Positions 1-30,590 of a stretch of 64,000 bases of DNA are shown here, piece by piece. The DNA is from Candidatus Obscuribacteraceae bacterium (GTDB taxonomy: Bacteria; Cyanobacteriota; Vampirovibrionia; Obscuribacterales; Obscuribacteraceae): the NCBI GenBank assembly GCA_044229845.1, contig JBGASG010000003.1:224001-288000 (forward strand), written 5' to 3'. The translations under genes and the position numbers were made by a program. How positions within the stretch are numbered: position 1 is the first letter of the stretch; the number at the start of each line of letters is the position of its first letter. Under the pieces are notes generated by a model, which saw nothing but the letters and a program-made list of their open reading frames with translations, did no database searches and was not told where the DNA came from.

Positions 1-3000
1 GCCTGTGATCGGATCGATGCGCAGACCTTCTATAGGTTTGCCGTTGGCATCCAACCGTATACCGTCGATAGGTTTGCCGGTAGCGGGATCTATTCGTACG
101 AAACCGTCACGTCCACCGATTTCCAGACGCGCACCGGGCGGAAGCGGTCCGGCGATACCGGACATTTCACCGCGCAACACCATGCCATCGTGTTTGCCAC
201 CAGGAAAATCGAAAATCGGTTTTCCAGTGACAGGATCCAGCATCGGTCGACCAGTGGTCGGATCCATGCGGAGAACAGCGCCATCACGGCCGATTCCAAC
301 CACGCCGGCGTCCTTGCCGCCGATCACGACGCCATCTTTACCGATGATGACACCATCTTTGCCGGTCAGCGAGACACCCACCTCACCACGGCCGGTGCCA
401 GGCGCCATCGGCAACCCTGTGCCACCAACTTTGGTGAACACCGTGCCCATCGAATCGATCATGCCGTCGCGGTTGAGTCCGGAGAATACCGGCTTGCCGC
501 CTGCATTGACCAGCACGCCTTTTTCATCCAGGTGCATACCGCCTGCGGCCAGAACTGATGCTGCAAATCGGTTGCCTGAGCTATCAGTGACGACTCCTCC
601 GGCAGTCTTCTCAAGGAAATCGAGACGTCTGCCGGCTTGTTCCCATTTCGCTTGTTCAGCCGGCGATGAGGCGGAAAGTACATGCTTAGCGATTTCTTCG
701 CGCATTTGGTCGATGGTCAGCGGCTTGCCGCCGGCTGCTCCGCCATCAGCGGCTCCCCTGCCGTCGGGTCCACCTTTGCCGTCACCCTTGACACCCTGTG
801 CGGCACCATTGACGTCCGCAAGGGCCGCCTGCAATTTGGCCTTCTCGGCGTCGGAGCCCTTGGTGAGCTGCAACATCTGCTCACGAGCCATGATTTCTCG
901 TTGCAGACCTTCAATTCTAGTCTGCGATTCTTTCACTACAGCATCACGCGCCTTGGCGTCAGCAATAAGGGCGTCAGCTGTCGGCGGTCCCTTGTCTGGT
1001 TTGGCGACCACGACCGGTTGATCAGTTCCGCCCGTTCCTTTCTGGTCGACTTTGACTTCTTTTCCTGGCGTGCCCGGGGTGCCACCAGCTACAGCGTCGA
1101 CAACTTTCGGCGCCTCGACTCTGAGTTTTTCCGCCCCATCGCGGGTGCGGGTATCACCGGCAGGAGCCGTTACGATACCACCAGGGTTTTCAACCAGCTT
1201 GGTATAGGCATTTCGGATCGCGCCATCGTCAGCACCCTTCGTTTCTTTAAAATAGGTATTGACGGTTTCGGGAGGCAGAGTAGAGAGATACTTAGCCTTC
1301 TCCTCCGGCGTTTTATAGGTATCTAGTTTGGTTTGTATTTCAGCTGACGTCGGCGGCTTCGCCGAGCTGTCTGTACCGGCACCCACTCCATTGTTACCTG
1401 TATCCCCTTTTGCGGGTTTCTCAGGGACGATGGTGGCAGCGCCGACAGTATCTTTGTAATCGGTGATCGCCTTCGACAATCCAGCTTGGACGCCTGAAGC
1501 AATATCCGGGTTCAACTTAATGTACTTATCGGCAAACTGTTGTGCACCATGATCTCCGGTCACAGCCGCGTTGGCGGCGGCATTGGTCACCACCTGGGTG
1601 ACACCTTGCGCTTTCTCGGCCGCAGTCAAGTTCGGATTGTCTTTAATGGCTTGAATTCTGCTCTCTGACACTACCGGGTCGAACTTAACTGGAGTCGGAG
1701 CACCGCCATTGGCTTGGGATGCCTGATAGAGATCCAGCACCTTGCCGCCTTTGTCGGTAGCAACGGAGCTGACGATGCCTTTGTTCACATCGGGAGCAAT
1801 TGCGGTTATAGAGTTCAGATAGTCAACCCGAGCTTTATCGTCAGGAAGCCCAGTCAGTCTGGTATTGATATCCGCTTTGAGCGCTTTTTCGTACTCCGAC
1901 TTGGCTCCGCCTGACAGTGTGGGAATCACGCTTGATACCAGACTTTGCTGACTTTTGTCACCGGAAGTAGCAAGTTGCGCTATGTAGGCACCCTGCTGTT
2001 CAGGCGTCATGGTCTTCAATTTCTCTTGCAATGCTGCCGGTGTCAGAGCTTCGACACGCGGTGTATTGCTGAGCAATTGAGCAGCTTCCATAGCGCGGGT
2101 GGTGTCTTTGTAGGTGTCTAGAGCGCTGCCCTGCAACTTATCTACGTACGGCTTCACGGCTGCGATGCCGTCTGCCGAGGTGGAAAGCGAAGCAAGATAC
2201 TTCGCTTGCGCATTAGTATCATTTCCGAAGGTCTTAAGCTGAGCCTCAATTGTGGCGGCGCTGAGAGCGGGATCTGCCGGCTTAGGAACCACATGCGTTT
2301 CGAGAGGCGCGATTTGCTGCTCGCGCTGATCTCGCCGTGCACTTAAATCCACAGGCGCAGCGGGAGCACCCGGGACCGGGACAGTAGTGCCTTCTTTCGG
2401 AGGCACAGTGGTGCCAAGTTGGCGAGCCAGGGTCAGGTCGGACTGATCAACTAGTCCTTTTTGAACCAATGGATTGAGGGCTTCGGTGCGGGCTGCGGTG
2501 CGGGCAGCCAGATCTTGCGGAGATACGGGTCCTGTTTCGGTTGGTCCAGTGCCCGGCTTGGTCTGCGTGTGGTCACCGGTGGGAGGAACTACCGGCGCAC
2601 CATCTCTAATTTTTCCGAACTTATCCACAACTTCGCTTTGAGTGCTGCCATCTCCGGACGAGACATGTCCAAGAATGGTGGCACGCGCCTGTTCCAACTT
2701 AGCGCGCTGGTCATTGGCCGCGAGGACAGCCGGGTCGCTGCCGGCTGGTAGATTTTTGACATCCGTGGCCGGCGGTCTGACACCACCTTGCTCCGTCGCC
2801 GCAGGCTGACCGGCTCTGATCAATTCGGTGAGAGCCTGTCCATAAGACTGTTTGCCGGCGGCATCCAGCTTGGCAATTTCACCTTGCACTTCGGCGCGGT
2901 ATTGCGGTCCCATGTTGCTGACTTGGGCTAGGTACTGAGCGCGCGCGACCGGGTCGTCTTTGAATTTTTCGAGGTTGGCGGCAATGTCTTTTTTGGCGGC

Positions 3001-5412: not shown

Positions 5413-5612
5413 GGTTTGAACTCCACGCGAATTGGCTTCAGGCCTTAGAACTCTAGTAATTACCTACCCTTCTCTTTACATTCTTAATAAACGGAATGAT
5501 TAAATCTGCAGCCGCTCTTATGAGCGGCGACAGGTTTGAGGGGAGTGTGGGGATGCCTGGGGTGTAGTTCGGTCGTTCGGTCGTTGCGGGAAGTACCGGG
5601 GGTGTCGGTTTC

Positions 5613-5636
5613 AAAAGGACCGGGGGGTCCCCGGTC
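5613..5636 (-). terminator. Possible weak intrinsic terminator after the LysM gene
   Basis: 8-bp stem gaccgggg/ccccggtc overlapping the stop codon, followed by CTTTT on the minus strand. Confidence 0.4.
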
Positions 5637-8600
5637 AGGGTCGGGGCGCGCCCGCTGTCGAGGCAAACTTGTCACAGTAGACTCGCCAGTTGGACGTGAT
5701 GTCGTTTTCGGCCAGTTCCTTAGCGGCTTGCGGGGGCAAGTCGATGCGCACGGTGCGGCGGGAGCCGTCCGCGTTATACTCGTGGCGCAGAGCCACGTCT
5801 TCAAAAATTTCGTAACCGAGGACGGGCAGCCAGTAAGTGCCGGTGAGGCGCATTTCCAGTCGCAGCTTCAGTCCGTGCAGTTCTACCTCGCCGTGGCGAG
5901 ACACGCGCACTTGTTCGGATATCTGAACGGTGTCGGTTGGACCTTCGTCGACGCTGGCCGCAATTTGGGTTGTTGGTCCGTCACCACTGGTGGTGTCAGA
6001 ACGAACAACGCGAGTGCGATCATCCCGCATCATCGGCTGAGTTTCCGGGCCCGAGGTCGCCGCCGACGGAGATACCGGCTCGGTAGCCGCGCCACCACCT
6101 GCGAGGGCACCGGCAGCAGCCGCCGGTCGCGTTTGTGCTACCGTATTTGGTGCGAGTTTCACTTCCTCATCAAACGATCTGAAGCAGCCGGGACAGATGC
6201 TGGCACTAGCTATGGTGGCACGCCCGCAGCCACCGCAGTTTTTGGTCTTCAGATCGTGCGGCCCGCTGGCATAAACATTGGTCTTGCGATCGCCGCCGAC
6301 AGTCCTGGCCTTATAGGCAGCCACTTCCTCCGCGGTCGGAATGGCGATAGTCATGCCCCGGCGCAGAGCCGCCTGCGGAACACCCTTCTCATCCGTACGG
6401 GCGGTCATGTCGTTCACTTCGGCCAATAACTTCCAAAGTCCTACATCTTGCAGAAGCGGATGTTTCATAGACACCGACTTAAGCGTGTCACCCAGGCGCA
6501 CGACATAAGTGCTGCGACTGCCGGCTTCCTGCTTGGCGCCGCTCAGCGGTCCGAGCAACTTCTCGATGTTCTCGCGGCGCTTCTTAGCCGCAGCTACCGC
6601 ATCGGCAGCCAGATCTTCGAGATCTTCCCCGGTGGCTGCGGGCGCATTTTTGCCGCCCTGCTCGCCGTCCCAGTTCTCGCCGAACTTGGCAGTCAGTTCC
6701 TCTTCAGCGGTGAGTTTCTTGCTGGCTTCTCCGAAATCGAGTTTGACACCGCCGCCCGCTACCAGACGTCCACGGAATTCGCGAATTTCTTGAGTGGTAG
6801 GCAGCCAGATAACCATCTTCGGACGCAGCGCCACCACATCACGACCTTTGCGCTGGATGACGGGAATCACTTCTTTATTGATCTCATAGATCAAAGCAGC
6901 CAGACGTTTGTCACGCAGCATCTTGCTGGCGATGCTCTCCAGTGTGTCGCCTTCCTTGACGATGTACTTGGTGCGACGTTCGGGCTCCTTCTTGTCTTTT
7001 TCTTGAGCCTTCTCCTGCTCTTCCTTTTCCTTCAATTCCTGACGTTTCTTGGCGGCGATCAAAGCTGCCAGTGCGGCATCCTTTGCTTGTTGTTCTTCCT
7101 TGTCCAGACGAGCTTCCTCCTCCTCTTCCTCTTTCTTCTTCTTCTGCTTAGCCTGCTCTTCTTCGAGCGCCTTCATGGCGGCAGCCGATTGTTCTTTGGC
7201 CGTTGCCATATCTAAAGGATTGAGAGGATTGAGCCCGACATCTTTGATGCCGGCCAAGGAGGGGTCGACGCGCATGCCCAGCTGTCCCAGCGCGGCAGCC
7301 ATATCCGCCTGCGCCTTGGCAGCACCATCGACCTTGATGGCTGTCGGGTCGAGTTTGAGAGCAGCATTGAACTCTTTGCCGCCCAGGATGCCCGCAGTGC
7401 CCGCGTCTTTGAGACCCATGTCGCGAGTAATTTGCGACAGAAGGGTTGAGGCGGCTGCGTCTTTGATCGCCCCTTGATCCAGTTGGCGCACACCCTGAAT
7501 CAATACATCTATTGGTTTGCCTGTCAGTTGTGCCGCCATGCCCAGCTCGGAGGTGCGCAATGTTGTTTGCTGCAAAGCGCTGGGATTGAGTATCTGGTTG
7601 AGCACATCGCGCAGAGCAGGCGTCATATTTTTGCCCATCAGCTCTTGCTGCAATTGCAGCATGCGCACATTCATCGTTTCTCCAGCATTGAGCTTGACGG
7701 CAAACATGTCGCCTCGGACGTCTTTGAGACTCAATTGTCCCGGCAGAAGTCCCAGTTCGGCAGCCAGTCGTCCGTCTTGCATACGGCGGCCCATGATGTC
7801 GGCCACTGTCAGCCCTTCGCCCGGTTTCAATCCCAGTTGAGTATTCAGATCCTTGAGGATCTTGTTGAGTTCGAGGAAGAAGGCTTTGCCGCCCTCGCCG
7901 GTAAGTCCCTTATCCAGAGCCTGCTGATTGACCTTCAGGAAGTCGGTCAGGCGTTCGAACGGCGATCTCGGCACGCCACCATCGGCGGTGGTGCGTCCTT
8001 GCATCAGATCCATAAAGTTAGCCAGCTTCTGTTGCTGCAGCGCGTCCAGTTTACCCAGCCCTTGCGGATTGTCCAGTAACTGCTTGAGGGAGATGCCGGA
8101 CTTGTCCAGTCCGAGATCTTTCAGGATGTCAGCCATGCGCTGTCCATTAGGACCGAGTGCATCGAGCTTGCCGGCTTGAATTTTGCTCATCGCATCGAGC
8201 ATTTGCGCGCGCAGTTGAGGATTTTGCAGATCCATCTGCAACTGCTGCATGCGCAGCGCTTGCATCTGATCGCCGCCGCCCATACGGTCTTGCATCATCA
8301 TCTTCGCAATGTCTTGCTGCGACAAATTGCGGAAGTCTTGCTGAGTCATCTTGGCAAAATCAGGATTGAACTTGGCGAGATCTTGCTGAGTAAGCCTGCC
8401 GAGGTCGATTTGACGCCCGGTGGCATCGACCAATTTGCCGGTGTCGATCGGTTTGCCGGCGCCGTCCAGAATTACCGGCTTGCCGCTCACATCGACCGGC
8501 TTCACACCTACATCCACCGGCTTGATGCCGCCCGGCAATCCGCCATCGGGGCGGAATGTAGTCGGGTTGACTGTTCTCAAATCTTGAACCAGGTTGCGAA

Positions 8601-9672
8601 CATCATCGCGATTGTTGAAGTTGTAGCCGCCCTGAATCTGTCCACTGGCCTTCAGCTGGTCGAGCACGGCGGTGACACCCTGGGTGTGCCCATCAGCAAA
8701 GGTGAGGTTGCCGGTCTTCGGATCGTACTTGGTGGCACCGGTAGCATCCAAAATGGTCCTGGTGAACTGGTTGCCGCTTGGGTAGACCTGAGTATCGCCA
8801 GGCTTCGGTACGACGACTGGTGTGACTGCAGGTGTGTCTGCTTTCACAACCGGTGTGTCTGCCTTCACTACCGGCGTATCAGCTTTGACGACCGGTGTGG
8901 TGCCTGCCGGCGCGGCGGGAGCCTCGTACTGCACTCCGGAACCTTGCTTCCAGGTGAGACTGGCAGCCGGTTGGTCGGCGCCGGCCTGGAACGAAAGTTT
9001 TTTGTCACTCCTGTCGAACGAGAAAGAGGCGCCGTCCTTGGTGGTATAGACGGTCGTGTCTCCGCGGCGTGTGGACTGGACGCCGGTCAAATCGTGCTGT
9101 GCGGCAAATGCTTGAAACTGCGGTTGTTGAACCAGACCTTTCATCACACGGCTGTCGAGACCCTGTGCGAATGCGGCGACACTGCTGTCCGGCGTTGTGA
9201 CCGCGGCACCATCGCTGGTTGCGGCGCCGGCGGGGGCCTTCTCTGCGCGCACGACTGGAGCGCCGGCGATCGGCTCACCGGTCGATGGCTTGATTGGCGT
9301 GTAAGTCCCGTCGGTATTGACCGTCCAGGCTTCTTTACCGCCACGAGCATAGAAATTGGTCACCCCTTCGGCATTGGTGGTCTCGATGCCGCGCACCTTC
9401 TCGCCATTGATCTGCAATTCGGCTCGGCGTGCCAATCCGACGCCCTCACTGGAAGCGACGTCGGTGCGGAAGCCGGCAATGCGATCTTTCAGCTCGGTGT
9501 TGGAGCCGGGCACCTGATTGGTGGGCAGGTCGGCGCGCAATAGCCCCGCTGCCGTCTCGCCTGCCTGCAGGTCGTTGCCGGTGACGGGCTTGTCACGCCC
9601 GAGCTTCTCCACCTTGTTGGGATCGAGAGAGTCGATGTTGGGAGAACCTGGCTTTTGTTCGAGAGGCGGCAT
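5635..9672 (-). CDS. Large protein with two C-terminal LysM-like domains and a zinc ribbon (~1345 aa)
   Basis: YIVKEGDTLESIA...IYEIN...PKMVIWLP and YVVRLGDTLKSVS...LAEVN...GMTIAIP fit LysM. CGGC..CPGC follows, with a charged coiled coil before the LysMs. ATG at 9672 has a GAGG SD; the track's TTG at 9801 has none. Confidence 0.85.
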   Translation of the reverse strand: MPPLEQKPGSPNIDSLDPNKVEKLGRDKPVTGNDLQAGETAAGLLRADLPTNQVPGSNTELKDRIAGFRTDVASSEGVGLARRAELQINGEKVRGIETTNAEGVTNFYARGGKEAWTVNTDGTYTPIKPSTGEPIAGAPVVRAEKAPAGAATSDGAAVTTPDSSVAAFAQGLDSRVMKGLVQQPQFQAFAAQHDLTGVQSTRRGDTTVYTTKDGASFSFDRSDKKLSFQAGADQPAASLTWKQGSGVQYEAPAAPAGTTPVVKADTPVVKADTPVVKADTPAVTPVVVPKPGDTQVYPSGNQFTRTILDATGATKYDPKTGNLTFADGHTQGVTAVLDQLKASGQIQGGYNFNNRDDVRNLVQDLRTVNPTTFRPDGGLPGGIKPVDVGVKPVDVSGKPVILDGAGKPIDTGKLVDATGRQIDLGRLTQQDLAKFNPDFAKMTQQDFRNLSQQDIAKMMMQDRMGGGDQMQALRMQQLQMDLQNPQLRAQMLDAMSKIQAGKLDALGPNGQRMADILKDLGLDKSGISLKQLLDNPQGLGKLDALQQQKLANFMDLMQGRTTADGGVPRSPFERLTDFLKVNQQALDKGLTGEGGKAFFLELNKILKDLNTQLGLKPGEGLTVADIMGRRMQDGRLAAELGLLPGQLSLKDVRGDMFAVKLNAGETMNVRMLQLQQELMGKNMTPALRDVLNQILNPSALQQTTLRTSELGMAAQLTGKPIDVLIQGVRQLDQGAIKDAAASTLLSQITRDMGLKDAGTAGILGGKEFNAALKLDPTAIKVDGAAKAQADMAAALGQLGMRVDPSLAGIKDVGLNPLNPLDMATAKEQSAAAMKALEEEQAKQKKKKEEEEEEARLDKEEQQAKDAALAALIAAKKRQELKEKEEQEKAQEKDKKEPERRTKYIVKEGDTLESIASKMLRDKRLAALIYEINKEVIPVIQRKGRDVVALRPKMVIWLPTTQEIREFRGRLVAGGGVKLDFGEASKKLTAEEELTAKFGENWDGEQGGKNAPAATGEDLEDLAADAVAAAKKRRENIEKLLGPLSGAKQEAGSRSTYVVRLGDTLKSVSMKHPLLQDVGLWKLLAEVNDMTARTDEKGVPQAALRRGMTIAIPTAEEVAAYKARTVGGDRKTNVYASGPHDLKTKNCGGCGRATIASASICPGCFRSFDEEVKLAPNTVAQTRPAAAAGALAGGGAATEPVSPSAATSGPETQPMMRDDRTRVVRSDTTSGDGPTTQIAASVDEGPTDTVQISEQVRVSRHGEVELHGLKLRLEMRLTGTYWLPVLGYEIFEDVALRHEYNADGSRRTVRIDLPPQAAKELAENDITSNWRVYCDKFASTAGAPRP
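8830..8898 (-). repeat. 21-nt coding tandem repeat (TPVVKAD x3)
   Basis: Translation reads TPVVKADTPVVKADTPVVKADTP. Confidence 0.85.
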
Positions 9673-10000
9673 GGGCGATCCTCGTGATTTCTGCGACGTG
9701 GACTCCGGGGCCGGAATTGCCCAAGAATCAGCCGCGAAGGCAAGCTGGGTGGCAAAATGAGTAGTAAGGGGGACAATTGCGGCTGCGAATGCGGCTAGCA
9801 AACCGCCAAAATGATAACTTATTAAGAAACGCTTGTCAATCGCTCAAAAGCCCAGAGGACGCGGCTTACAGTTAAATTTCAGCCGTCCGGAGACGAGCGT
9901 GGACCAGGCGGCCGAGAACCCCGGGACGAAACGTCCTGCCGGCCGCGGCACGCCACCATATTCAACACCATGTATAGTATCAGCGGTTGGTGAGAAACAG

Positions 10001-10906: not shown

Positions 10907-13900
10907 CGCCGCCTTCTCCTCCTCCGCCTTCCTGTCCCTCGTTCTGGAAGTTTTCCAGAGCTGTGCGGACTTTGTGCAAGAGTACCAGCTGAGCGTCGGT
11001 CGAAAGCTGCTGATCTTTGATCAAGTGAACAGCCAGGCAGTAAGCCAGATCGAGATCGCCCTGACCGATCATGCGTTCGGTAAGCAATCTGCAGAACCAT
11101 GCTGCCGAATCGGAAGCCGATGAATCTTTGCGGTTGATGGAAGAGTTGAAGTCGAATTTGATCTTCGGATCGCGAACGATTTCCGAGACTTCGAAGCGAT
11201 AAATGCATTTAGATGTGCACGGACCACAGGTGGGGTGCGGACCTTGATCGCGCTTGTGCAATTCGATGAAGTCGTCACGCCACTCGCGCAATACTGAAAT
11301 ATCGAGGCGGCGGTTGACTTCACTTGGTTGAAATGCTGGTCTCAAAAGGTTCAACCAGCGCAGATGCTGCTCGCGCACCTGATCATAGAACCAGTAGTTT
11401 TCTTCGCCCTTGCGCTCGAAATAACGTTCAGTCGCCTGAGTAAGAGCGCACCAGGTGATACCGGTGAGATTACCGGAACGGGCACGACCGCCGATCACCC
11501 GCTGAATCTCGTGGATGATCTGAGCGCGGAAGTGCACCAGTTGCGTGAGATCCTTCAGCGTCGAAAGCACATAGCGGTTATATACTTGCCGGAATAGAGT
11601 ATCGTCAGCCACCATCACCGCCGTGTCGAGAATGGCGGAATCGCAGCGATGCAGGCAGAACTTACAGCCCATATGGCGGTCGAAGTTCTTGACGATCTCC
11701 AGTCCGGCCATCGCTTCCCGCACCACCTGATCAGACTCGTGTGGTGTCTCCGGCGGTGGCACAGAAGCCGTCTTGTCATACATAATCGCCAGATGGAAAG
11801 GTGTCTCCATCTTTTCCGCATACACGATGGCGCGTCCTTGCCCGAGCGCAGTCACGTGGCGCTTCTGAATATCATCAAGGTTCATGGCACCACCCATGGA
11901 GTCGCGGTCGTCGGTGGCCACGATGCGGTGCATAACCTTCAAGTTCGTGTTTTTCAGCGCTTCCGGAGCCAGTTTGTTGGGGATCTGGTCTGCGATGATA
12001 AAGCCCTGACCATATGAACGAATTTCTGCCAGCATGTTGGTGAAGAATTCCACCGCTTTACCGGCCGGGTTGGCACTTTCCGCGCTCTGCGAAGTAGGCA
12101 CGTTCTTCAAAAGACGGTGAGCCTCTTCAATCAGCATGACGTGCTGCAAGTTATCGTGCGGTCCCAGTGATTCACGGTATTCGTAAAGGAAGACGAGAAT
12201 CATACCCATCAGGAATGACTTTTCAGAGTCTTCCGACACCATCTTGAGCTCAACGACCGTCGGTCTGCCGAATAGAATTTCAGGCGGGATAGATCTCCTG
12301 GTGTTGAGCATCTGCCCTTTACCACCAATGAGCAGCGAGCCGATACGGGCTTTCAGCGCAGCCTGCACGTCAGGTCCGATTCTCTCCGAATATCCGAATG
12401 ATTCGGTAATCGGGTCGATGATTTCGAACAAGTCTTTCATGGTCGGATAAATCTCGGGCGGACAGTCCGGATCACCGACGTTGATGCCTGGCGGCAGGCG
12501 ACGATTCTTGTTTTGCACAAGGTCCCATCCGCGCACACCGTAGATGGCGTTCAAAGCCTTTTCCAACACCTGCGGCATTGGTGAATACATTTCAAAAGAT
12601 GCGTTAAACACAGACTTCAAGGCATCAAGGTGAGTCTGTACTTTCACTCCTTTCATGATTTCAAATGGGTTGAGGCGGAATGGTGATACCGTTTCATCCC
12701 CCAGAGAAAATGCCTGACCGTGTCCTTTGAAGGTCTCGGACATTAGCATCATGTGCCGATATTCTGATTTCGCCGGCTCGATCACCATAAACGGGATCTT
12801 GTATCGCCAGAGCTGGTTGAGCAGATAGAAACACGTGTTAGTTTTACCGCCGCCGGTCACCCCGCAGACAATGGTGTGTTTTTGCAGCGCATCCACATCG
12901 ACATAGTAGAGGTTGCCTGTGTCCATGTTCTTATCGAGGATGTTGCCGATGGCAATTACCCTGGTTGGATCTTTCGGCGGAATCTCGGCGAGCGAAAATT
13001 CAGCAGATCGGCGAATGCGGAAGCCAGGCATTTCGCTCTTCGGTAAGTGGCAAAACGCTGACAGCATTCGGGAGTTGAGTGGTGACACAAATGTATAGCG
13101 CAGCAGATCTTGCACCGTGTCGCCCTGACGCTTGTTAGACAACAAACCGAATTGTTCGACGTGCGGCTTCAAGCCCGGCAGCTGGTGCGTGCGCAATGGT
13201 GTCGGACGACTTTGTTCGTCGGTGTAGATAGCGCGAATCAAAGACTGCAGTCGCACAAAGACAGACTGATCCGGTGCGAAGTAATAAACGCCGACCTGCC
13301 ACATTCCGACTGCGGTACCCAGCTGCACGTGCTTCAGATAGGCATCTTGCAACTCTAAGTAGTACTTGATGCGCCGCTTTTTCTCAGGGTCTTCTTGATC
13401 TTGAGCTCGCTGAATCTGATCAACAATGGCAAACTCTTCCTGGCTGACCAGGCGCTGCGGAATTGGCGCCGCCAGAAGCAAGATGCCGAACTGGTTGCCC
13501 TGCAAGCCGTTCGCGACACGCTCAATCTGCTCAGACTCCATGGTGCTGTCGATAGAACTCTTCAGCGAAGGCACGCCGGTAACGATGCCGGTGTAAGTCG
13601 CCAGAGGCGAGATCATGGAACGAATCGCATCGCTGCTGAAAGGCTCCGCGTGAATATCTACGCCGTTGTAGACGCTATGGAGCAGCGACCGCAAAGTCGT
13701 GTAGGGCAGATTAGGATCTTGCTGCGGTTTGCTGCCGTTGCCGTTGGTTTCTTGAAAAACGGGCGGTGACATGCCCATGTAGTAATTGACGCCGGCTTTG
13801 TTGCCGATCACCAGATACGCGATGTTAGCTTTCTGCGCGTGCAAGCCGGTGAGGGCATCTTCCATAACGTATTGCCGCTTGGGCAGTTGGTTAGGATCGT

Positions 13901-14114
13901 TATTGGCTTGCGGCTGTTGTTGTTGCTGCTGTTTTTCCCGTTCTATGTCCCAGGATCGCAATACGCCATCGATGCGTACGAATGTCAGCCCGGGCACTCG
14001 CCAGCTCTCGAATGCTGCCGGATCTATAGGTTGACCCTCCAGCGCATCGAGATCATAGCGGCGCAAGTCCGCTATCTTCTCGTCCCAAATATTTCGACTA
14101 GGTGCCTGTGTCAT
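10896..14114 (-). CDS. HerA/FtsK-superfamily (DUF87-like) ATPase, 1072 aa
   Basis: Walker A GVTGGGKT, Walker B VMLIEEAH, and arginine finger plus Gln motif EIRSYGQGFIIADQ. No TM segment is evident. C-terminal Cys clusters are CKFCLHRC and CGPCTSKC. Confidence 0.88.
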   Translation of the reverse strand: MTQAPSRNIWDEKIADLRRYDLDALEGQPIDPAAFESWRVPGLTFVRIDGVLRSWDIEREKQQQQQQPQANNDPNQLPKRQYVMEDALTGLHAQKANIAYLVIGNKAGVNYYMGMSPPVFQETNGNGSKPQQDPNLPYTTLRSLLHSVYNGVDIHAEPFSSDAIRSMISPLATYTGIVTGVPSLKSSIDSTMESEQIERVANGLQGNQFGILLLAAPIPQRLVSQEEFAIVDQIQRAQDQEDPEKKRRIKYYLELQDAYLKHVQLGTAVGMWQVGVYYFAPDQSVFVRLQSLIRAIYTDEQSRPTPLRTHQLPGLKPHVEQFGLLSNKRQGDTVQDLLRYTFVSPLNSRMLSAFCHLPKSEMPGFRIRRSAEFSLAEIPPKDPTRVIAIGNILDKNMDTGNLYYVDVDALQKHTIVCGVTGGGKTNTCFYLLNQLWRYKIPFMVIEPAKSEYRHMMLMSETFKGHGQAFSLGDETVSPFRLNPFEIMKGVKVQTHLDALKSVFNASFEMYSPMPQVLEKALNAIYGVRGWDLVQNKNRRLPPGINVGDPDCPPEIYPTMKDLFEIIDPITESFGYSERIGPDVQAALKARIGSLLIGGKGQMLNTRRSIPPEILFGRPTVVELKMVSEDSEKSFLMGMILVFLYEYRESLGPHDNLQHVMLIEEAHRLLKNVPTSQSAESANPAGKAVEFFTNMLAEIRSYGQGFIIADQIPNKLAPEALKNTNLKVMHRIVATDDRDSMGGAMNLDDIQKRHVTALGQGRAIVYAEKMETPFHLAIMYDKTASVPPPETPHESDQVVREAMAGLEIVKNFDRHMGCKFCLHRCDSAILDTAVMVADDTLFRQVYNRYVLSTLKDLTQLVHFRAQIIHEIQRVIGGRARSGNLTGITWCALTQATERYFERKGEENYWFYDQVREQHLRWLNLLRPAFQPSEVNRRLDISVLREWRDDFIELHKRDQGPHPTCGPCTSKCIYRFEVSEIVRDPKIKFDFNSSINRKDSSASDSAAWFCRLLTERMIGQGDLDLAYCLAVHLIKDQQLSTDAQLVLLHKVRTALENFQNEGQEGGGGEGGGGG

Positions 14115-14263
14115 TTCTTTGAAAGTTTCCCGCTATAAGACTAATCGTCTTAAAGCACCACGTAACGCCTGCTTTTTCCCCGGACCGGCTCCCTATCCGC
14201 TCTCTACGCCTTGTTTTTACCATGCCTGCTCGTAAATATCAGGCATTGCCGAATATCAGGCGC

Positions 14264-17200
14264 TCAAGCCGGAGATTCTGCCAGTTCTTTAGACTTCTTG
14301 TTCTTGTCTTTCTCCTTTTGAGTTTTTGGTCGATTGGCGTAGATCTGATCGATCAAGCTGCGGTTGATGTCCTTGTCGGCGACGTCTTTGAAATCCGGAG
14401 ATTGCATATTGAAGACGCCGGCTACAGTGCCTACTCTGTAGCAGAAGTACGTCCGCTCCTCTTGACCCACTACGCGGTCGATGTTGAGTTTTTCTTCGTC
14501 TGAAATAAGTTCGAACTGTGGTGAAGTATTGACCTTGTTGAAGATGTTCTGAATGGTCTGGTGCTTTACTTTACGACCGTCCACACGGAACATTTGAGGT
14601 CCTAACATATCGCCGTCCTTTTTAGCCAGCGCGAAGATGCACATGGTGCCGGTGTTGATTACTACCTGGTTGCGGTAGTCTTCCGGCAGACCTTGCAAAG
14701 TCTTGGTGGCTGCGATCAGACCGATCTGAAACTTTTTCGTTTCGCTGGTGAGCGCATCGAAAGTTTCTTTTTCAATGAATGAATCGAATTCATCGAGATA
14801 CAACGCAGTCGGCCGGCGCTTGTTGGAGTTTTTCAGCGACAGCGACAGGGCGGCCTGCTTCAAGCCGCTGACGATCAAAGAACCGAGCAAGTTGGCGTTC
14901 TGGTCCAACTGCCCTTGCGGTATTTTGACGAACAGAATCGACTTGTCGTTGATGACGTCCCGCAGGCTGAGGTCACCTTTAGCCTTTGTGAGAATCGGAC
15001 GAATACGCGGGTCACCAAGCATTGGCTGCACGCGGTTGAGAATCGGCTCGATCCAGTTCAACCATTGATCTGTACGGGCGAGGCGCTTGTAGTTGTTCCA
15101 CGCGTCTATGAGTGTGATGTACTCGGCGCGCTCGTTCTTCATGCGCTCGACCTTCTCCAACAGCACATCGCGAAAGTCGTTCTCCGCCAGCAAGGTGGGC
15201 AGGTCGGTGAGGGTACGCCCGTTAGCCATGAGCAAAATAGCGGCGTTGCGCAAAATGTTGGCGGTCTGCTGGTTCCACTGGCTCTGCGAACCAGGCGGTT
15301 CCGTATATATGGCTTTGAATCCGAACACGATTGCCGAAGCTGCGTTCTGCAGGTCGCCGTCTTCAGGAAACTCAAGCGGGTTGTAGCCAATCTGATGATC
15401 GACATCGCCGAAAGTCGGGTCGATTACAACAATCCGCTTGGCCATGTCGCGTCCCTTAGGATGAGAAGCGACCCAATCCAACAACAGATCTACCAGTCCG
15501 CCGTCGGAGTCGACCAGCACCACTGCGCGGTCAGCCGCTGCCATATCGTGAGCAATCATAGACGCCATCATGCGGCTCTTGCCTTTGGCAGCGCCGCCCA
15601 GGATCAATATGTGGGGATTCTGCTCGCGAACATCCGGCGGCATAGACAGCGTGCGCGGTGTGTAAAAGCTGAAGATGTTCCAGTCGACGCGGCTGCCGAA
15701 AGGCACGCCTCCGGGCTTCAGCCCGCGCCCAAATTCCCGCACCATCTTGGTGTGCTGCGCCTGGAACTGAGAAGGAATGTATTTCTTCTTCGCCCAGATG
15801 TTGATCATGCCGGATGGTCCGAACAGTTTCAGTGAAAGCATAGCCAGCAGGGCACCGATGCCGATGATGCCCAGGGCGACGTTGAGGAAGAACTGGTGCA
15901 TCTTCTTCGGATCTTTGCCGATGTCATCCATATTGACGCCCTTGCCGCCACCGGCACCGCCAGTATTGATTGGAATCTGGCCGCTGGCAATCTGCGTGCC
16001 GGTTGGTCCGGCTCCGGGCTCGAAGCTCTCCTGCATAAAGCCTTTGAAATCACCGACGAAGGTTTGAATCTGTCCGCGCCAGCCGAAGCCTACGCGCTTG
16101 GTGTACTTGTAGGCACCACGGAACAATGGAGCCTCTCGGGTCTGTTCATTCCCGGGCGTGATATTGGCGATGATGGCAATCGGTTTGCCTCGCGCCTGTT
16201 TATTTTCGTCGACGTACTGTTTGCCCAGTTCCATCCGTCCATTTTTGTAGGTGCCGTTCACGAAGAACAAACCGAAAGAATCCATGCCCTGTCCCTGGAC
16301 CTGTTCGCCGTTTTGCACCAGCGTCAGGTCGCCCTGGACAGATTTGCCTGCTGCCGGTCCGGGCCCGGCCGTAGCCGCCTTTGCAGGTCCCATGATCGTC
16401 TTCCATTTGCCGCCGACGTACTGTCCGCTGGACTGGCCGCCACCGCCTCCTCCAAACGGATTTGGAAATCCGCCAGCGTTGCTGCTTGTGCCGCTGCTCG
16501 GCATAGTGGGGTGCTGCTGCCCGGCATTAGAGATTGATTGTCCGAGTGAACCAAATACGGTGCTGAGAATTCCGAGCACCGGTGCCACTACCATGAATAT
16601 AACGATGCCGGCCGTCATCACGGTCTGCATCTTCATGGGTATGCCGAAAAGGCTGATCGTCTTGTCTTCGGTGACGCGATCTTCAAGACGCGGACGGCGC
16701 TTCGGCTTCTTATCCTTTTCTTCTTCATCTTCGTCGTCGTCATCTTCATCTTTGACGACGATTTTGTGTTTGGGAGGCTTGCCGTCCTCTTCGAACATCG
16801 AGGACTTGGACTTCGATTTGACCGGCTCCAATTTTTCATCGTCGTCGTCGGCAACCACCGGCTTCTTGGCCGGCGGCGGAGCGTCTGTAGTTGCACCTTC
16901 CTTTGCGGCGCGCTGGGCGCGAGCGATTGCCTCGGCAATAATCGAAGGCTGGGCACCGCTCATGGTCTGGTCTAATCCGCCCCCGGTGGTCGGACCGCCG
17001 GTCGGGCTGCCCGCACCGGCAGGCGCGCTGACAGCCGGGGCAGACGAATTTTGCGAGAAAGGACTGGCTGCTGGTTGTGATGATCCCTGAGAAAAGAAAT
17101 CTGCGCCGGAATCGAAGAAAGAGCTGTTGTTGGCTGGAGGAGCCGCCACAAAGGGAGCCGGCGCCTCGACGGGCGCCGCGACAACCGGTGCCTCAGTTAC

Positions 17201-18577
17201 GGGAGCGGCAGCCGGTGCCGCAGCCGATTCGGTGTTGACACTGTCAGTAGTGGCAGGCTCGGTGGTTGCTCCGCTGTCAGCGGCAGGCGCTGGATCGCCG
17301 GGCTTGACACCAAAAGGCAAGAACGCTGAATCATTACCGCTGGACGGTGGTGCACCAGCCGGCGCTCCGGCAAAGAAATCGCCTTTGGTCTCGGACAGTG
17401 GCTGCGTGATTGGACCGGTGGCCACTTGATTGAGTCCGCCGCCGCCAATCTGCCCCGGCCCGGTCACCACCTGATTGGGTTGCGACATTGTCTGGCTAGG
17501 CGGAGGCAACGCGGGAGCACTGGCGACCGATATGGTCGAATGCGGCTGGCTGGCGGCTGCCAGCGCCACATTGCTGGCCGGCTCGGCTATAAAAGATGCG
17601 ACCTGTGACTGGTCGGCGGCTGCCGGATTGGGAGTCGTCTCCGGTTGGGCAGCATCCGGCGGTTTATCAGCGATCGAATTCGACTGTCCGCTGTGGAAAA
17701 GCGCCCCAGCAATCGCAGCGGCGGCTGCACCGGCAGCAAATCCGCTCGCCGCGGCAGCCAGCGGAGGAATAGATGCGGACTGGTTGATGCCACCAACCGG
17801 AGCGATTGTACCGACTGGAATCGGTCCGCCTATAGGCAAGTCAGACACCGATTCATCCGAGTCAGCGTCCGAGCTGCCACCGTCGATGGTCGGTTTGATT
17901 GGCTCGGGTTGCGGCTGCGGAGCCGAATCATCCGCGGAGTCTGCCGGCATCGCTTCTTGCGGCAAAGCAAAAGAATTATCGGAAACAACCAATTTGGGCT
18001 TCTCCGATTCAGGCATGAGAGTCATGGGTTGGGCTACAGAAGCAGCCTCAGCGGCGAACTGCTCAGCAACCGGCTCCAACGAAATCAAACCCGATACGTC
18101 CTGGGCACCGCCAGTCGTTCCCGGAATTAGAGAAGCTGCACTGCCCAGGAGACTGCCTAGTTTTGATTGCGCTGCCGGCGGCACCGGCTCAGGCGGTGGA
18201 GGCGTGGCGATCGGACGTCCGGTGGCAAAGTCTATTTCGGTCGGTTGCGGCGGAACAACATTGATCGGGGCAGCGTGCGGCGAGCCCCAGGTGTTGGCGG
18301 CGGCGGCGTGTCCGTTGCCATTGCCGTTGCCATTGCCGTCCTCACCTTCTTGCATGTAGCTGTGTTGCGTATAGAGATTGCGGTACTGGTAACGGTTTAC
18401 AGCTTTTTCTAAAACAAGCGGATCGGGCGCGACAGCTACAGCCAGCGGGGCACTGGTATGCGAAATGACCGGCAGCGCGGTTGGCGAGTGCTTCGAGATG
18501 GTGGCGCCGCAATCAGGACAGGCTTTTGCCTTACCCCTGAGAATCACACCACATTGCTGGCAAATGAGAATTTCCAT
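14264..18577 (-). CDS. VirD4/TraD-like membrane ATPase paralog A (zinc ribbon, long disordered region, 2 TM, ATPase), 1437 aa
   Basis: N-terminal CQQC..CPDC and two hydrophobic segments. ATPase motifs: HILILGGAAKGKS, LVDSDGGL, GYNPLE, ILRNAAILL, EPILNRV, LYLDEF. Confidence 0.82.
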   Translation of the reverse strand: MEILICQQCGVILRGKAKACPDCGATISKHSPTALPVISHTSAPLAVAVAPDPLVLEKAVNRYQYRNLYTQHSYMQEGEDGNGNGNGNGHAAAANTWGSPHAAPINVVPPQPTEIDFATGRPIATPPPPEPVPPAAQSKLGSLLGSAASLIPGTTGGAQDVSGLISLEPVAEQFAAEAASVAQPMTLMPESEKPKLVVSDNSFALPQEAMPADSADDSAPQPQPEPIKPTIDGGSSDADSDESVSDLPIGGPIPVGTIAPVGGINQSASIPPLAAAASGFAAGAAAAAIAGALFHSGQSNSIADKPPDAAQPETTPNPAAADQSQVASFIAEPASNVALAAASQPHSTISVASAPALPPPSQTMSQPNQVVTGPGQIGGGGLNQVATGPITQPLSETKGDFFAGAPAGAPPSSGNDSAFLPFGVKPGDPAPAADSGATTEPATTDSVNTESAAAPAAAPVTEAPVVAAPVEAPAPFVAAPPANNSSFFDSGADFFSQGSSQPAASPFSQNSSAPAVSAPAGAGSPTGGPTTGGGLDQTMSGAQPSIIAEAIARAQRAAKEGATTDAPPPAKKPVVADDDDEKLEPVKSKSKSSMFEEDGKPPKHKIVVKDEDDDDEDEEEKDKKPKRRPRLEDRVTEDKTISLFGIPMKMQTVMTAGIVIFMVVAPVLGILSTVFGSLGQSISNAGQQHPTMPSSGTSSNAGGFPNPFGGGGGGQSSGQYVGGKWKTIMGPAKAATAGPGPAAGKSVQGDLTLVQNGEQVQGQGMDSFGLFFVNGTYKNGRMELGKQYVDENKQARGKPIAIIANITPGNEQTREAPLFRGAYKYTKRVGFGWRGQIQTFVGDFKGFMQESFEPGAGPTGTQIASGQIPINTGGAGGGKGVNMDDIGKDPKKMHQFFLNVALGIIGIGALLAMLSLKLFGPSGMINIWAKKKYIPSQFQAQHTKMVREFGRGLKPGGVPFGSRVDWNIFSFYTPRTLSMPPDVREQNPHILILGGAAKGKSRMMASMIAHDMAAADRAVVLVDSDGGLVDLLLDWVASHPKGRDMAKRIVVIDPTFGDVDHQIGYNPLEFPEDGDLQNAASAIVFGFKAIYTEPPGSQSQWNQQTANILRNAAILLMANGRTLTDLPTLLAENDFRDVLLEKVERMKNERAEYITLIDAWNNYKRLARTDQWLNWIEPILNRVQPMLGDPRIRPILTKAKGDLSLRDVINDKSILFVKIPQGQLDQNANLLGSLIVSGLKQAALSLSLKNSNKRRPTALYLDEFDSFIEKETFDALTSETKKFQIGLIAATKTLQGLPEDYRNQVVINTGTMCIFALAKKDGDMLGPQMFRVDGRKVKHQTIQNIFNKVNTSPQFELISDEEKLNIDRVVGQEERTYFCYRVGTVAGVFNMQSPDFKDVADKDINRSLIDQIYANRPKTQKEKDKNKKSKELAESPA

Positions 18578-18660
18578 CTCGCTCTACTATCCCTTGACAT
18601 CTATGTCCTGATCTGCTTTGCCTTTTGGCTATCGTAGTTATTCCCGTCAGTTCCCCTTTT

Positions 18661-21336
18661 TCACTTTTTATCTTTATATGGCCGGTAGGCTCGAGCCAGC
18701 AACTTCATATCGACACTGTCCCTGTCGATGTCCGGAAAGTCCGGCGCCCGCATGTTGAAGACCCCGGCTACGCTGGAGACCTTGTACCAGAAGAAGGTGC
18801 GGTCCTCCTGTCCGATGATGCGATCCATATTCAGCTTTTCCTCGTCGGCAATCAGGTCATAGTTCGATATGGCTGTGTTGACGGCGTTGAAGATGTGCTG
18901 AATCGTGCGCTGCTTCGCCTGGCGACCGTCAACCCGGAAAATTTGCTTGCCTAGCGCTTCGGCGTCTTTCGGGGCGCAGGCGAAGGCGGCCATGTTGCCG
19001 ACGTTGTTGACCACGTAGTTGCGGTAGTCTTCGGGAATCTCTTGCAAACTGCGTGTCGAACAAATCAGACCCAACCCATAACGGCGGGTGTCGTTGCCGA
19101 CCAGCTGAAACATGTCTTTGTCGATGAAGGACGAAAAGTCATCGAGATAAAGCGAAGCTGGATATCGGCAGGCATCGTCTTCATGAGATAGAGACAGGGC
19201 TGCGTTTTGCACGCAACCGACAACCAATGCACCAACCAGCGAGGCATGATCGCCGAAGCGCGCCCGGGGCAACTTGACGATCACGATGCCTTGATTCTCC
19301 AGCACCGAACGAAAGTCGACGTCGTGTTTGCCACTGGATATGATGGCATTCAGTTTGGGATCGCCGAGGACGGGTTGCAACCGGTTGAGAATCGGCTCCA
19401 CCCAGTCCAGCCACTGTTCGCTGCGGGCCAACTTGCGGTAACGGCTCCAGGACTCGGAGATCATCAGCAGTTCTGCGCACTCGTCTTTGCGAGCCTCGAC
19501 AGTCTGCAACAACAGATCTCGTTCGTCGTTGTCTGTCAGCAGTGTCGGCAGATCACCGAGACTGCGACCGTTCACCGCCAGCAGCAGCAACGCACTGCGC
19601 AAGATGTGCGCCGTCTGCTGCGTCCAGGTCTGCTGTTGTCCTGGTGCAGGCGTGTATATGGCACGAAAACCTGCCACTACAGATGATGCCATATTCTGCA
19701 ACTGGCCGTCGTTCGGCTCGCGAATCGGGTTGAAGGACAGCGGCAAATCGCGCGTACCATCGATGATTCGCAAGCGTTTGGTCAGCTGGGATGCATCCTG
19801 GTGGCAGGCGATATGGCGCACCACCAGATCGGACAGCGCGCCGTCTGGATCGACGATGATCACTGCTCTGTCACCACATTCGATATCATGCACGGCCATG
19901 CCGGCCAGCAAGCGCGTCTTGCCCTTGCCGCTGCCACCGACCGCCAGGATATGAGGATTAGTGATGCGCAAATCGGCCGGCAAGTTGAGCCGGCGGGGAG
20001 CAAGGTGCCAGGGCGCCCAGTCGATGCGCGTCCCCAGCGGCAGCGAACCGGCAGTCAGCCCTCGTCCATACTGCGAAAGCCATTTGTTTTGATCGCCCTT
20101 GTGACGAGTCGGCACATACTGCTTGCGACTCTTTATATTGATATAGCCGTTCGGTCCGAATATTTTCACCGAGGCGCCGATCAGCCCGAAGCTGAGCAGC
20201 AAAAAGCCGAGCAGCGACTTCAAGAACAGATCGCGCAACCAGTCGCCCGAGGGAGGATGCACCAGCAAGTAGAAGAAGTCGCGACGATTCGCTTCCCAGG
20301 TGCCGCGACCGCCGGACATGATCCAGCCGCTCAGGCGTCCCTCGCTCAAGTGTCCCTGTCCATCAAATCGCAGTCCGCGCTGTCCAGGAACCAGCGATCG
20401 TTGACCGAGCGAGACACTGCCATTATCGAGGGCAATGCCGGACAGTCCATCACCGCCCGCCGACAGGGGTGTGCCGGTCAGTCCGGTGCCGCGCCGCTGC
20501 AGGTGCACGAAGAAACTGCGCGTCTTGACGCCCAGCGTCGTATACTGGACCTGCCAGATGCCTTCATCACTGTAACCGCTCAGTAGCGGCGTCTGCGTGG
20601 CTGCTATCAGCATGACGGCGGCCAGGACGGCGGCGCCGAAGACATAGAGCTGACGGGCCGAGGGTACTCCGGCTGACGCAAATTTAGCGCTCTGTCGACG
20701 CTTGCGCGCAGCTTTTGTGGGCTCAGGCAGGACGACTGCCGGCTCTTGCTCTGCAGATCTCGTGAGTCTTGCTACCACCTGTGGTGAGTCGGCGGCGGTC
20801 GATTTTGCCACCGCCTTTGCCACTATCGGCGGCGGCGGGTCCGGTTGTTGTTTCGCCACTGCTGGCGGTACCACTGCCGGTGGCGGCGCGGGCGACGGCG
20901 CGGTCTGTTCTGCCACCGCCGGCGGAGCCGGTACGGAGCGCAGGGCCGGTATCATGTTGACAGCGTTGGCGAAAAAGTCGGCAGCCTGCTCGCTGGCTGG
21001 CTTTTCTTCCATGAAAGTGAGTGATTGGATCGGCACGTCCGGTGCCGGTTGCGGCTGAGATTGAGCCCCCGCCACTGAAGCTGCCGGTGCCGTATGAGGC
21101 AGGGGCGACTCAGTCGGGTCGGGGAGCGAAAACGGCTGAGCCTGGACCGCTACCGGAGACACAACGGCGACCGGCGCGGACGGTCGACTCTCGCCGGCTT
21201 TCAGTGGTTGAAGATTGATGTTCGCTCGCGACGATCTGGTCGCAGAAATTGAGGAGACTTTCAGTCCGCATTCGCTGCAGAACTTGTCCTTTTCTCGAAT
21301 TACATTGCCGCAATGGTGGCAAAAAAGGAGGTCCAC
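18661..21336 (-). CDS. VirD4/TraD-like membrane ATPase paralog B, 891 aa
   Basis: GTG start with GAGG SD, N-terminal CHHC..CSEC and two TM segments. ATPase motifs: HILAVGGSGKGKT, IVDPDGAL, SFNPI, EPILNRL, LYLDDF. It is colinear with paralog A through the C-terminus. Confidence 0.82.
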   Translation of the reverse strand: MDLLFCHHCGNVIREKDKFCSECGLKVSSISATRSSRANINLQPLKAGESRPSAPVAVVSPVAVQAQPFSLPDPTESPLPHTAPAASVAGAQSQPQPAPDVPIQSLTFMEEKPASEQAADFFANAVNMIPALRSVPAPPAVAEQTAPSPAPPPAVVPPAVAKQQPDPPPPIVAKAVAKSTAADSPQVVARLTRSAEQEPAVVLPEPTKAARKRRQSAKFASAGVPSARQLYVFGAAVLAAVMLIAATQTPLLSGYSDEGIWQVQYTTLGVKTRSFFVHLQRRGTGLTGTPLSAGGDGLSGIALDNGSVSLGQRSLVPGQRGLRFDGQGHLSEGRLSGWIMSGGRGTWEANRRDFFYLLVHPPSGDWLRDLFLKSLLGFLLLSFGLIGASVKIFGPNGYINIKSRKQYVPTRHKGDQNKWLSQYGRGLTAGSLPLGTRIDWAPWHLAPRRLNLPADLRITNPHILAVGGSGKGKTRLLAGMAVHDIECGDRAVIIVDPDGALSDLVVRHIACHQDASQLTKRLRIIDGTRDLPLSFNPIREPNDGQLQNMASSVVAGFRAIYTPAPGQQQTWTQQTAHILRSALLLLAVNGRSLGDLPTLLTDNDERDLLLQTVEARKDECAELLMISESWSRYRKLARSEQWLDWVEPILNRLQPVLGDPKLNAIISSGKHDVDFRSVLENQGIVIVKLPRARFGDHASLVGALVVGCVQNAALSLSHEDDACRYPASLYLDDFSSFIDKDMFQLVGNDTRRYGLGLICSTRSLQEIPEDYRNYVVNNVGNMAAFACAPKDAEALGKQIFRVDGRQAKQRTIQHIFNAVNTAISNYDLIADEEKLNMDRIIGQEDRTFFWYKVSSVAGVFNMRAPDFPDIDRDSVDMKLLARAYRPYKDKK

Positions 21337-28572: not shown

Positions 28573-28689
28573 AACACTTTTCGCTTCCCAATTTGCTTTC
28601 AATATTGTGACAGTCGACCCTTGCGGAATGAGGGCTTGAACCGCACAATAAATATATAGACTCCTTGCCGTCTGAGCTGAGGTGTATTC

Positions 28690-30484: not shown

Positions 30485-30514
30485 TCTGCGTCCGGCCCGG
30501 TTTCCCAGACTTTC

Positions 30515-30586: not shown

Positions 30587-30590
30587 TTGG

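Follow-up and report, generated by a model that had tools for sequence, protein, structure and literature searches.

In this work we analyse a group of genes at positions 1 to 21,336 of a 64,000-nucleotide (nt) stretch of DNA, called the window below, from Candidatus Obscuribacteraceae bacterium (assembly GCA_044229845.1, contig JBGASG010000003.1, positions 224,001 to 288,000; contig C18 in our numbering). The genes encode an FtsK/HerA-superfamily ATPase of coupling-protein type (A) and a duplicate of it (B), a soluble HerA-like ATPase, a small partner protein and very large proteins with LysM domains, here called giants. They form a core chromosomal locus that is specific to the order Obscuribacterales, stands beside the EF-Tu gene tuf and is not a mobile element. 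In its modelled fold and predicted membrane topology, ATPase A is built like a type IV coupling protein. What we observed directly of these genes is their folds and motifs, their synteny and how they are distributed. The explanation of them that we favour, and to which we give about an even chance, is that a type IV-like protein secretion machine, domesticated on the chromosome, scattered and vertically inherited, has in this locus its module for substrate coupling and cargo. Little is known of how the Obscuribacterales live; they belong to the non-photosynthetic class that is sister to the oxygenic cyanobacteria.

Layout of the locus

All six open reading frames (ORFs) were confirmed on the minus strand. 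Read in the direction of transcription they are ATPase B (18661-21336; 891 amino acids, aa), ATPase A (14264-18577; 1437 aa), the HerA-like ATPase (10896-14114; 1072 aa), its partner (10001-10906; 301 aa), giant G1 (5635-9801; 1388 aa as the longest ORF) and giant G2, whose 5' part (1-5412) is open at the window edge and whose full gene of 3443 aa lies at C18:219081-229412. Two further giants follow behind G2, to the left of the window, G3 (1295 aa) and G4 (1766 aa), and a fifth, G5, is found on contig C8.

An earlier note on this DNA had described six co-oriented genes with gaps under about 330 nt and an overlap of the HerA/partner pair. The spacing is as described: the gaps from B to G2 measure 83, 149, -11, 199 and 222 nt, with the HerA-like gene and the partner overlapping by 11 nt. 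The shared orientation is real in this genome, but it is a peculiarity of the genus. Among the matches listed, 71 of 73 genomes have the giant convergent, on the other strand; the two with co-orientation are this genome and its genus mate, and the arrangement here thus reflects a local inversion. No inverted repeats stood out at the ends of this inversion. The three FtsK/HerA ATPases of the note keep their family assignments (TrwB_AAD_bind and DUF87), with the amendment that B is a duplicate found in this genus and the core set has two. Its acidic partner exists as a gene, although the acidic N-terminal half is not conserved and only a core of about 150 aa is. Its LysM giant and repeat giant are likewise both real, but they belong to a tandem of four and both of them carry the LysM module.

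ATPases A and B

From its N-terminus ATPase A comprises a zinc ribbon, a long low-complexity cytoplasmic region, a transmembrane (TM) segment, a beta-rich loop, a second TM segment and the ATPase domain. Hydropathy predicts the two TM segments at aa 653-671 and aa 896-914, and predicts two in B as well, so that in both proteins a membrane anchor precedes an FtsK/HerA-type ATPase. The ATPase domain of A (aa 916-1413; window 14339-15832, minus strand, delimited by alignment and motif columns) has the VirD4/TrwB fold. The profile and structure searches proposed in the earlier note agree on this: A matches Pfam TrwB_AAD_bind over its cut-off (E 3e-8), and Foldseek searches with an AlphaFold2 model of the domain (predicted local distance difference test, pLDDT, 81) gave Cag-beta (8dol), HerA (4d2i) and TrwB (1e9s) as the best matches, with E around 1e-10, and matched DotL too. 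The TMq to Cag-beta and TrwB is 0.53-0.59, and HerA 4d2i ranks among these. The Walker A motif (G-x4-GK[ST]) and the Walker B motif (LYLDE) are preserved. A deep search with the A alignment returned the clade at E 1e-279 to about 1e-170 and then fell sharply; beyond the clade it reaches a broad, unnamed TraD-like family near E 1e-50.

ATPase B has the same architecture as A and 48% identity to it in the ATPase domain, a Walker B of LYLDD, and a TrwB_AAD_bind match below cut-off (E 0.0045). It is present in this genome and in one near-identical locus (L007) only, and in a quick tree of A the two form a long-branch pair, separate from the second A copies of other genera. B is thus, to judge from its sequence, a fast-evolving, recent and genus-specific duplicate. 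Since it branches apart from the second copies of other genera, extra copies of A appear to arise repeatedly and to evolve fast.

The HerA-like ATPase, its partner and the divergent gene

The HerA-like protein is soluble, with no TM segment, and consists of an N-terminal domain of about 380 aa, an ATPase domain assigned to DUF87 (E 8e-7) and a C-terminal domain with two Cys clusters. Its identity is about 80% throughout the order, and the Walker A and B, R-finger and Q-sensor motifs and both Cys clusters are intact in 109-111 of 111 homologues. For the N-terminal domain there is a DUF8128-like Atlas lead (score 0.90), and a search for relatives of this domain returned the same clade only. The best NCBIfam match of the protein is ser_rich_anae_1 (NF033849; E 9e-29), followed by CedD (E 8e-16), both far under cut-off; we rejected an assignment to ser_rich_anae_1, which scores 99 bits against the 650 needed, and the sequence has no long serine-rich tract.

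The retention of all catalytic motifs, and matches to CedD and to archaeal HerA structures, speak for a different function that we consider unlikely but a serious contender, namely DNA import or chromosomal exchange. A (as a VirD4/CedD-like ATPase) and the HerA-like ring would then, in the manner of the archaeal Ced system, pull DNA in through a channel encoded by one of two VirB4 operons elsewhere in the genome (operon I, see below), with the other (operon II) as the donor side and the giants as neighbours, or as mating adhesins exported otherwise. The order also has a core relaxase-like gene, and the VirB4 of operon I has a weak match to CedB. However, CedD and CedB score far below cut-off, with matches confined to the ATPase core, the locus genes matched no family for nucleases, recombination or DNA binding, and NurA lies on another contig. 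Nor does DNA import account for the persistence of giants lacking signal peptides at the locus in at least 73 of 79 genomes.

Two smaller genes accompany the ATPases. The partner has its conserved core (window 10037-10519) behind an acidic, lineage-specific N-terminus and matched no Pfam or NCBIfam family. Upstream, on the plus strand, a divergent gene (21756-23888) encodes a coiled-coil protein of 710 aa with no family match and no TM segment, whose central and C-terminal blocks are highly conserved among 19 sequences. It stands head-to-head with A in 18 of the 18 maps that extend upstream of A, and probably belongs to the module.

We also noted some relatives of these proteins. The divergent protein ends in 50 near-invariant aa, which recur in two small ORFs, C8:439856-440188 (75%) and C18:134124-134762 (49%). 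A shorter HerA paralogue of 658 aa without the N-terminal domain is encoded at L097:10222-12198, and split or partial forms occur in many genomes. In the family f44 (L052-L053, G402:C129), three HerA-like paralogues, 58-62% identical to the protein studied here, flank a different sort of protein, of 6341 aa.

The giant proteins

Across the order the giants vary from about 1,000 aa to open frames of 6,362 aa, and their bodies differ from genus to genus. What is constant is the C-terminus. G1 to G5 are paralogous, and G1 to G4 share a C-terminal module in which a charged coiled coil is joined to a pair of LysM-like domains and to a terminal domain some 100 aa long that matches DUF7718 (in G2 over cut-off, at 31.1 bits); G5 has the module minus the terminal domain. 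In G1, a variable body is followed by the charged coiled coil, the LysM pair (6292-6984; LysM E 5e-6), a zinc ribbon and a beta-meander C-terminal domain (CTD; 5638-5961), all on the minus strand. G2 has repeats of about 38 aa (A.DYS), DPxTG repeats and Thr/Pro-rich tracts, and ends in a LysM-LysM-DUF7718-like module. RHS repeats were over cut-off in five of eleven giants scanned from relatives, one of them marginal, and no toxin domain or immunity gene was recognised.

A model of the CTD shows a beta-meander with a long helix (pLDDT 89). Structure searches with it gave a best Z of 5.8 among 48,161 chains, no Foldseek match at E 0.001 and no Atlas match. No clear structural match thus links the CTD model to the XVIPCD type of C-terminal type IV signal of Xanthomonas, a VirD4-binding domain. 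A complex prediction for the ATPase domain of A with the CTD scored 0.10 against a mark of 0.32, its controls not folded, and is uninformative either way.

The absence of clear Sec signals from the giants, remarked on in the earlier note, is borne out by the wider set: an N-terminal hydrophobic segment was predicted in 0 of 18 giants, compared with 24 of 32 control proteins from the operon I region. Giant adhesins without Sec signals but with C-terminal signals are the typical cargo of type I secretion systems, which favours this route for the giants. In most genomes, moreover, the giants lie on the opposite strand to the ATPases, and HlyD-like proteins under the cut-off were found in 85 of 107 genomes. 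Nevertheless, we regard it as very improbable that the giants leave by a type I (ABC-HlyD-TolC) or another route and that their place beside the ATPases is an inherited synteny without function. HlyD was over cut-off in just 19 of the 107 genomes and reached E 1e-20 nowhere in this one, among the 14 candidates scored per genome. No RTX nonapeptide motif was found in G1-G5, and no such transporter genes lie beside the giants.

Distribution and synteny

We searched 107 genomes of the order for the parts of the locus. As the genomes are related to one another, they do not give independent counts. ATPase A was found in 96 of them, two by distant matches only, and in 38 of the 39 of high quality. 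The HerA-like ATPase is present in 98 (a few via partial or paralogous matches), the partner core in 84 as a single copy, the LysM pair in 101 and the CTD in 105. Outside the order, 400 other genomes from a phylum-wide sample yielded two weak A matches.

Gene order is kept as well, which answers the question of neighbourhood conservation raised in the earlier note. Among the matches listed for the 79 genomes with a full-length HerA-like gene, A lies upstream of it within 6 kb in 74, the next gene downstream is the partner in 66, and in at least 73 a giant has its end no more than 15 kb away (for four genomes the LysM match stood in for the CTD match). The 13 kb upstream of A contain EF-Tu in 16 of 18 maps and the SpoU gene in all 18. 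The GC content of the locus is 0.562 and that of the genome 0.555.

This picture leaves little room for an ordinary integrative conjugative element (ICE) or a HerA system of the anti-phage type. Their traces here are weak matches to conjugative coupling-protein models in NCBIfam and to the HerA and mad8 ATPase models of PADLOC. Against them stand the near-universal presence of the locus, its synteny at tuf and its ordinary GC content, and no relaxase, integrase or effector nuclease was found among the neighbours scanned. The earlier note would have been refuted by a relaxase/VirB/integrase set just left of the window. Over 40 kb on that side, the 18 ORFs scanned held no relaxase, VirB or integrase family; they encode a DinG-like helicase, PiT, Usp, GT9, an M16 peptidase, FeoB and similar families or had no match. 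As a positive control, the same searches found a canonical mobile VirB system with a relaxase in the genome G439, separate from the locus. We consider this explanation barely tenable and already largely refuted.

Conservation of this kind could also point to housekeeping. A and HerA would then segregate chromosomes or place the septum, with the LysM giants and the divergent coiled-coil protein as a cytoplasmic or wall scaffold. In support, the HerA-like gene is a single-copy gene with 80% identity in a locus that adjoins tuf, the divergent gene is conserved, and four of five genomes tested (G000, G404, G437 and G439) gave no FtsK-grade match; NurA is present in these four, unlinked to HerA. 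We find such a role rather improbable, since A was not found in other orders of the class, and its repeated copies evolve fast. Unlike a scaffold, the giants range from about 1,000 to more than 6,300 aa and swap their bodies, several with RHS repeats.

Two smaller observations on distribution can be added. A co-loss of the partner and the CTD, which fits G439 and G440 (for the adjacent giant) and G505, was rejected since it fails in the genus g181, where the partner is relocated. The full A-HerA-partner-giant order also occurs on a contig titled Actinobacteria (L019), probably through a binning or labelling error.

VirB4 operons elsewhere on the chromosome

A weak FtsK match led us to a true VirB4 on contig C17. 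This protein, VirB4-I, has TraC_F_IV and P-loop_TraG domains, and VirB4 here matches the CD1110 (best), TraC and VirB4 models of NCBIfam at E 1e-59 to 1e-33, under the equivalog cut-offs. The VirB4 query found matches in 106 of the 107 genomes of the order, four of them only via a 32% paralogue; in the rest of the class, 294 genomes gave none at E 1e-40. This is the same distribution as that of the A/HerA/giant locus.

VirB4-I belongs to a conserved, core operon (operon I; C17:20254-33800) beside riboflavin genes. Besides VirB4 its genes code for small exported proteins, a lipoprotein that weakly matches OEP, a pair of polytopic membrane proteins, a protein like DUF2225, a small protein with two TM segments and two bitopic proteins, and in the nine genomes mapped it holds no coupling protein. 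Operon II (C13:1-8832), which in this genome is cut by the start of contig C13, encodes a giant polytopic protein, a DUF2225-like protein, small TM proteins, a second VirB4 (VirB4b), a bitopic protein, a VirD4 and a Replic_Relax protein. The VirD4 is found in 98 of the 107 genomes and the single-copy Replic_Relax gene in at least 93, while G404 has a 62% orthologue missed by the family search. As operon I lacks a coupling protein and operon II has its own, A would be a free coupling protein. Operon II is a possible domesticated chromosomal DNA-transfer system, and because it carries Replic_Relax we dropped the idea of a wholly relaxase-free system. Among the other relaxase families, TrwC and MobA_MobL were found in none of five genomes and Relaxase in two of the five, on other contigs.

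Of the remaining type IV components, those labelled VirB3, VirB6 and VirB8 are putative assignments from position, size and TM pattern; only VirB4 and VirD4 are recognisable by profile. Precomputed PF19590 and PF19478 matches on 3 of 120 homologues were not reproduced on re-test.

The earlier note had proposed a chromosomal machine for protein export or envelope interaction, with the adjacent giants as its substrates, and had recognised no relaxase or VirB genes in the window. Neither outcome that it named as refuting came about: the locus is indeed chromosomal, conserved and not an ICE, and no such genes were found among the neighbours scanned. But VirB4, VirD4 and relaxase-like genes are present, unlinked, in the same genomes, B is a duplicate, and the giants are usually on the other strand, so that the locus is not self-contained.

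Several further genes bear on the VirB4 inventory. In this genome a number of upstream genes of operon I are in pieces, whereas they are whole in the genus mate, possibly due to assembly indels. A third, stand-alone VirB4 (C13:100090-102915) is 65% identical to VirB4-I and has no neighbours typical of type IV secretion systems (T4SSs); extra copies occur in several genera. Weak TrbI/VirB10-like matches lie unlinked at C12:27986-29059 and C22:44306-45523, with a comparable match in five of five genomes tested. At the start of contig C11 (181-879) is a bitopic protein with 33% likeness to the VirB8-like gene of operon II.

Surroundings of the locus

To the right of the divergent gene the window has a conserved chromosomal context (27136-32164) of selA, a SpoU-family methylase, tRNAs and EF-Tu (tuf), then a ribosomal protein cluster. 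The tRNA cluster, tuf and the ribosomal protein-secY cluster (30515-54330) are ordinary housekeeping surroundings. Between the divergent gene and selA lies an insertion found in this genus, a gene (23936-26566) for an 876-aa protein with MshEN-like c-di-GMP motifs and TPR, cNMP-binding and DUF4388 domains.

A scan for sigma-70-like promoters gave 8 sites, compared with 5.7 expected in shuffled sequence, and is a consensus match alone. One site (11/12; 9811-9839, minus strand) is just upstream of G1 and suggests, from its sequence, a separate transcription unit for the giants. Another (10/12; 21547-21575, minus strand) lies upstream of ATPase B. Of 21 RNA runs listed, the four used gave only short, low-depth contigs over genes and gaps alike, which do not bear on transcription or operon structure.

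A proposed route for the giants

We infer that the giants are the substrates of the ATPase machinery, and the following route would fit such a role. Giants may be recognised in the cytoplasm by way of the CTD. To recruit or unfold them would fall to the soluble ring of the HerA-like protein and its partner, and the ring of A would pass them into the channel of VirB4 operon I. Once exported, they could be tethered to peptidoglycan by their tandem LysM domains, so that the variable N-terminal body, which is RHS/YD-like in several genera, might serve as an adhesin, contact factor or effector toward other cells.

A number of findings weigh against this proposal. Most rings of the HerA type are motors for DNA, and for the one found here CedD ranks second among the NCBIfam matches. 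In A itself, at the presumed position of the superfamily's 'Q sensor', 17 of 17 sequences have K, and the presumed R-finger position is variable (R, K or A). No VirB3, VirB6 or VirB8 match was obtained with Pfam, NCBIfam or PDB profiles, or by HH comparison with the single canonical proteins of G439. Read as its longest ORF, G1 is hydrophobic over its first 43 residues; its true start is likely the ATG at codon 44 (position 9672), and the first 43 codons are missing from the orthologue of the genus mate. The CTD is absent after the LysM pair in three adjacent giants (G439, G440 and G461) and in G5, and RHS repeats were undetected in the giants of this genome. The giants are convergent in nearly all relatives and have a promoter-like site of their own.

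Some genomes also break the association. In the sister family f44 the HerA-like gene is not behind A in the two loci whose downstream side can be seen (L022 and L023), and the HerA copies are away from LysM giants. G505 (97% complete) has A and HerA but neither the partner nor the CTD, and G467 (92%) and G498 (93%) are without true A/HerA matches yet keep VirB4 and giants. In addition, all parts are core genes of one order. Their co-occurrence is thus not independent evidence, and linkage is not function.

With more reserve than for the secretion module as such, we put forward as a tentative idea that the whole order has domesticated two conjugation-derived machines: operon II, with VirD4 and a relaxase-like protein, for DNA, and a coupling complex of two motors, a VirD4-like ring in the membrane and a soluble HerA-like ring with its adaptor, for the export of giant proteins via a new C-terminal signal. 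If this division of labour is true, it would represent a new class of secretion for giant proteins (1,000 to more than 6,000 aa) and an unrecognised contact-dependent lifestyle for the Obscuribacterales, such as epibiosis, predation or kin interaction. The trait is one of the order and is testable: VirB4 operons and coupling proteins, two of each, together with a HerA-like motor and variable LysM giants, present in essentially all Obscuribacterales and in none of the 294 other genomes of the class searched. The locus also supplies a candidate C-terminal export signal, and a pairing of a VirD4-type with a soluble HerA-like ATPase that was not found described in the literature searched. If the genes serve DNA exchange instead, it would still be new for this lineage to have a core transfer system on the chromosome.

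Comparison with known systems

Several known classes were tried and rejected. The locus is not an ICE, as no relaxase, virB or integrase gene is among the ORFs scanned on either side, it is present in nearly all high-quality genomes, and its composition is that of the genome. Type VII secretion was discarded with WXG100 in none of five genomes (the control was positive) and one ATPase domain per protein, where EccC/EssC has three in tandem. HerA-NurA repair fails with NurA on contig C1 here and away from the locus in four other genomes, and the anti-phage HerA systems of PADLOC with matches limited to the ATPase core; the partner and G1 match nothing there. The type VI protein VipB was found in none of 107 genomes, and FlhA and the contractile sheath in none of five; as ways out for the giants these routes fit badly.

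The following comparisons rest on the consulted parts of the cited sources. The literature searched, with subscription papers mostly and supplements outside its scope, held no description of an Obscuribacterales system, and in the main text of a 2025 review of T4SSs the terms 'cyanobacteri' and 'LysM' do not occur (PMC12857230). Within the class, Vampirovibrio chlorellavorus has a T4SS proposed for cell attack, which is of MPF_T type, largely plasmid-borne and accompanied by relaxases (PMC4451040); the VirB4 here had no match at E 1e-40 among the 294 genomes searched in the rest of the class.

The Patescibacteria have a phylum- or order-wide chromosomal and scattered T4SS with a monoderm (MPF_FATA-like) VirB4 and a co-opted function, whose coupling protein is mostly distant from virB4 and whose relaxase is mostly absent (PMC12102498). 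The Obscuribacterales share with it the chromosomal VirB4, here best matched by the CD1110 model, and the distant coupling protein. They differ in the larger genome of the host, the two core VirB4 operons, one with VirD4 and Replic_Relax, the additional HerA-like ATPase and the giant LysM proteins. The rvh system of the Rickettsiales is vertically inherited and scattered in islets, with a duplicated VirB4 and extended VirB6 paralogues (PMC2653234), all of which have a likeness here, the VirB6 label resting on position and topology. However, rvh is a recognisable P-type vir system, whereas here profiles recognise VirB4 and VirD4 alone, and no host cell is known.

The crenarchaeal Ced system imports DNA and combines a chromosomal VirB4/HerA-like ATPase, an unlinked VirD4-like ATPase and a polytopic channel (PMC11823120). 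A similar combination, with candidate channel proteins, is found here too, but Ced is archaeal, has no giant LysM proteins, and its CedD and CedB models score far below cut-off. For the giants, the closest likeness is to the RHS/YD polymorphic proteins, which are large and modular, with a constant trafficking module and a variable rest, and have a link to FtsK/HerA ATPases; a survey of polymorphic toxins tied such ATPases to type VII cargo (PMC3482391). The giants have the reverse polarity, with a constant C-terminus and a variable N-terminus, and no WXG100, toxin or immunity protein was recognised with them.

Finally, ATPase A resembles the type IV coupling proteins VirD4, TrwB, Cag-beta and DotL in its two TM helices, its extracytoplasmic loop and an FtsK/HerA-superfamily ATPase with an all-alpha domain. 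It differs from them in the zinc ribbon and disordered region of about 650 aa before the first TM segment, in the large beta-rich loop, in the K at the Q-sensor position and in sequence, with 10-16% identity. It differs also in its genetic company, since it is encoded with a second, soluble HerA-like ATPase and with giants, far from the virB genes.

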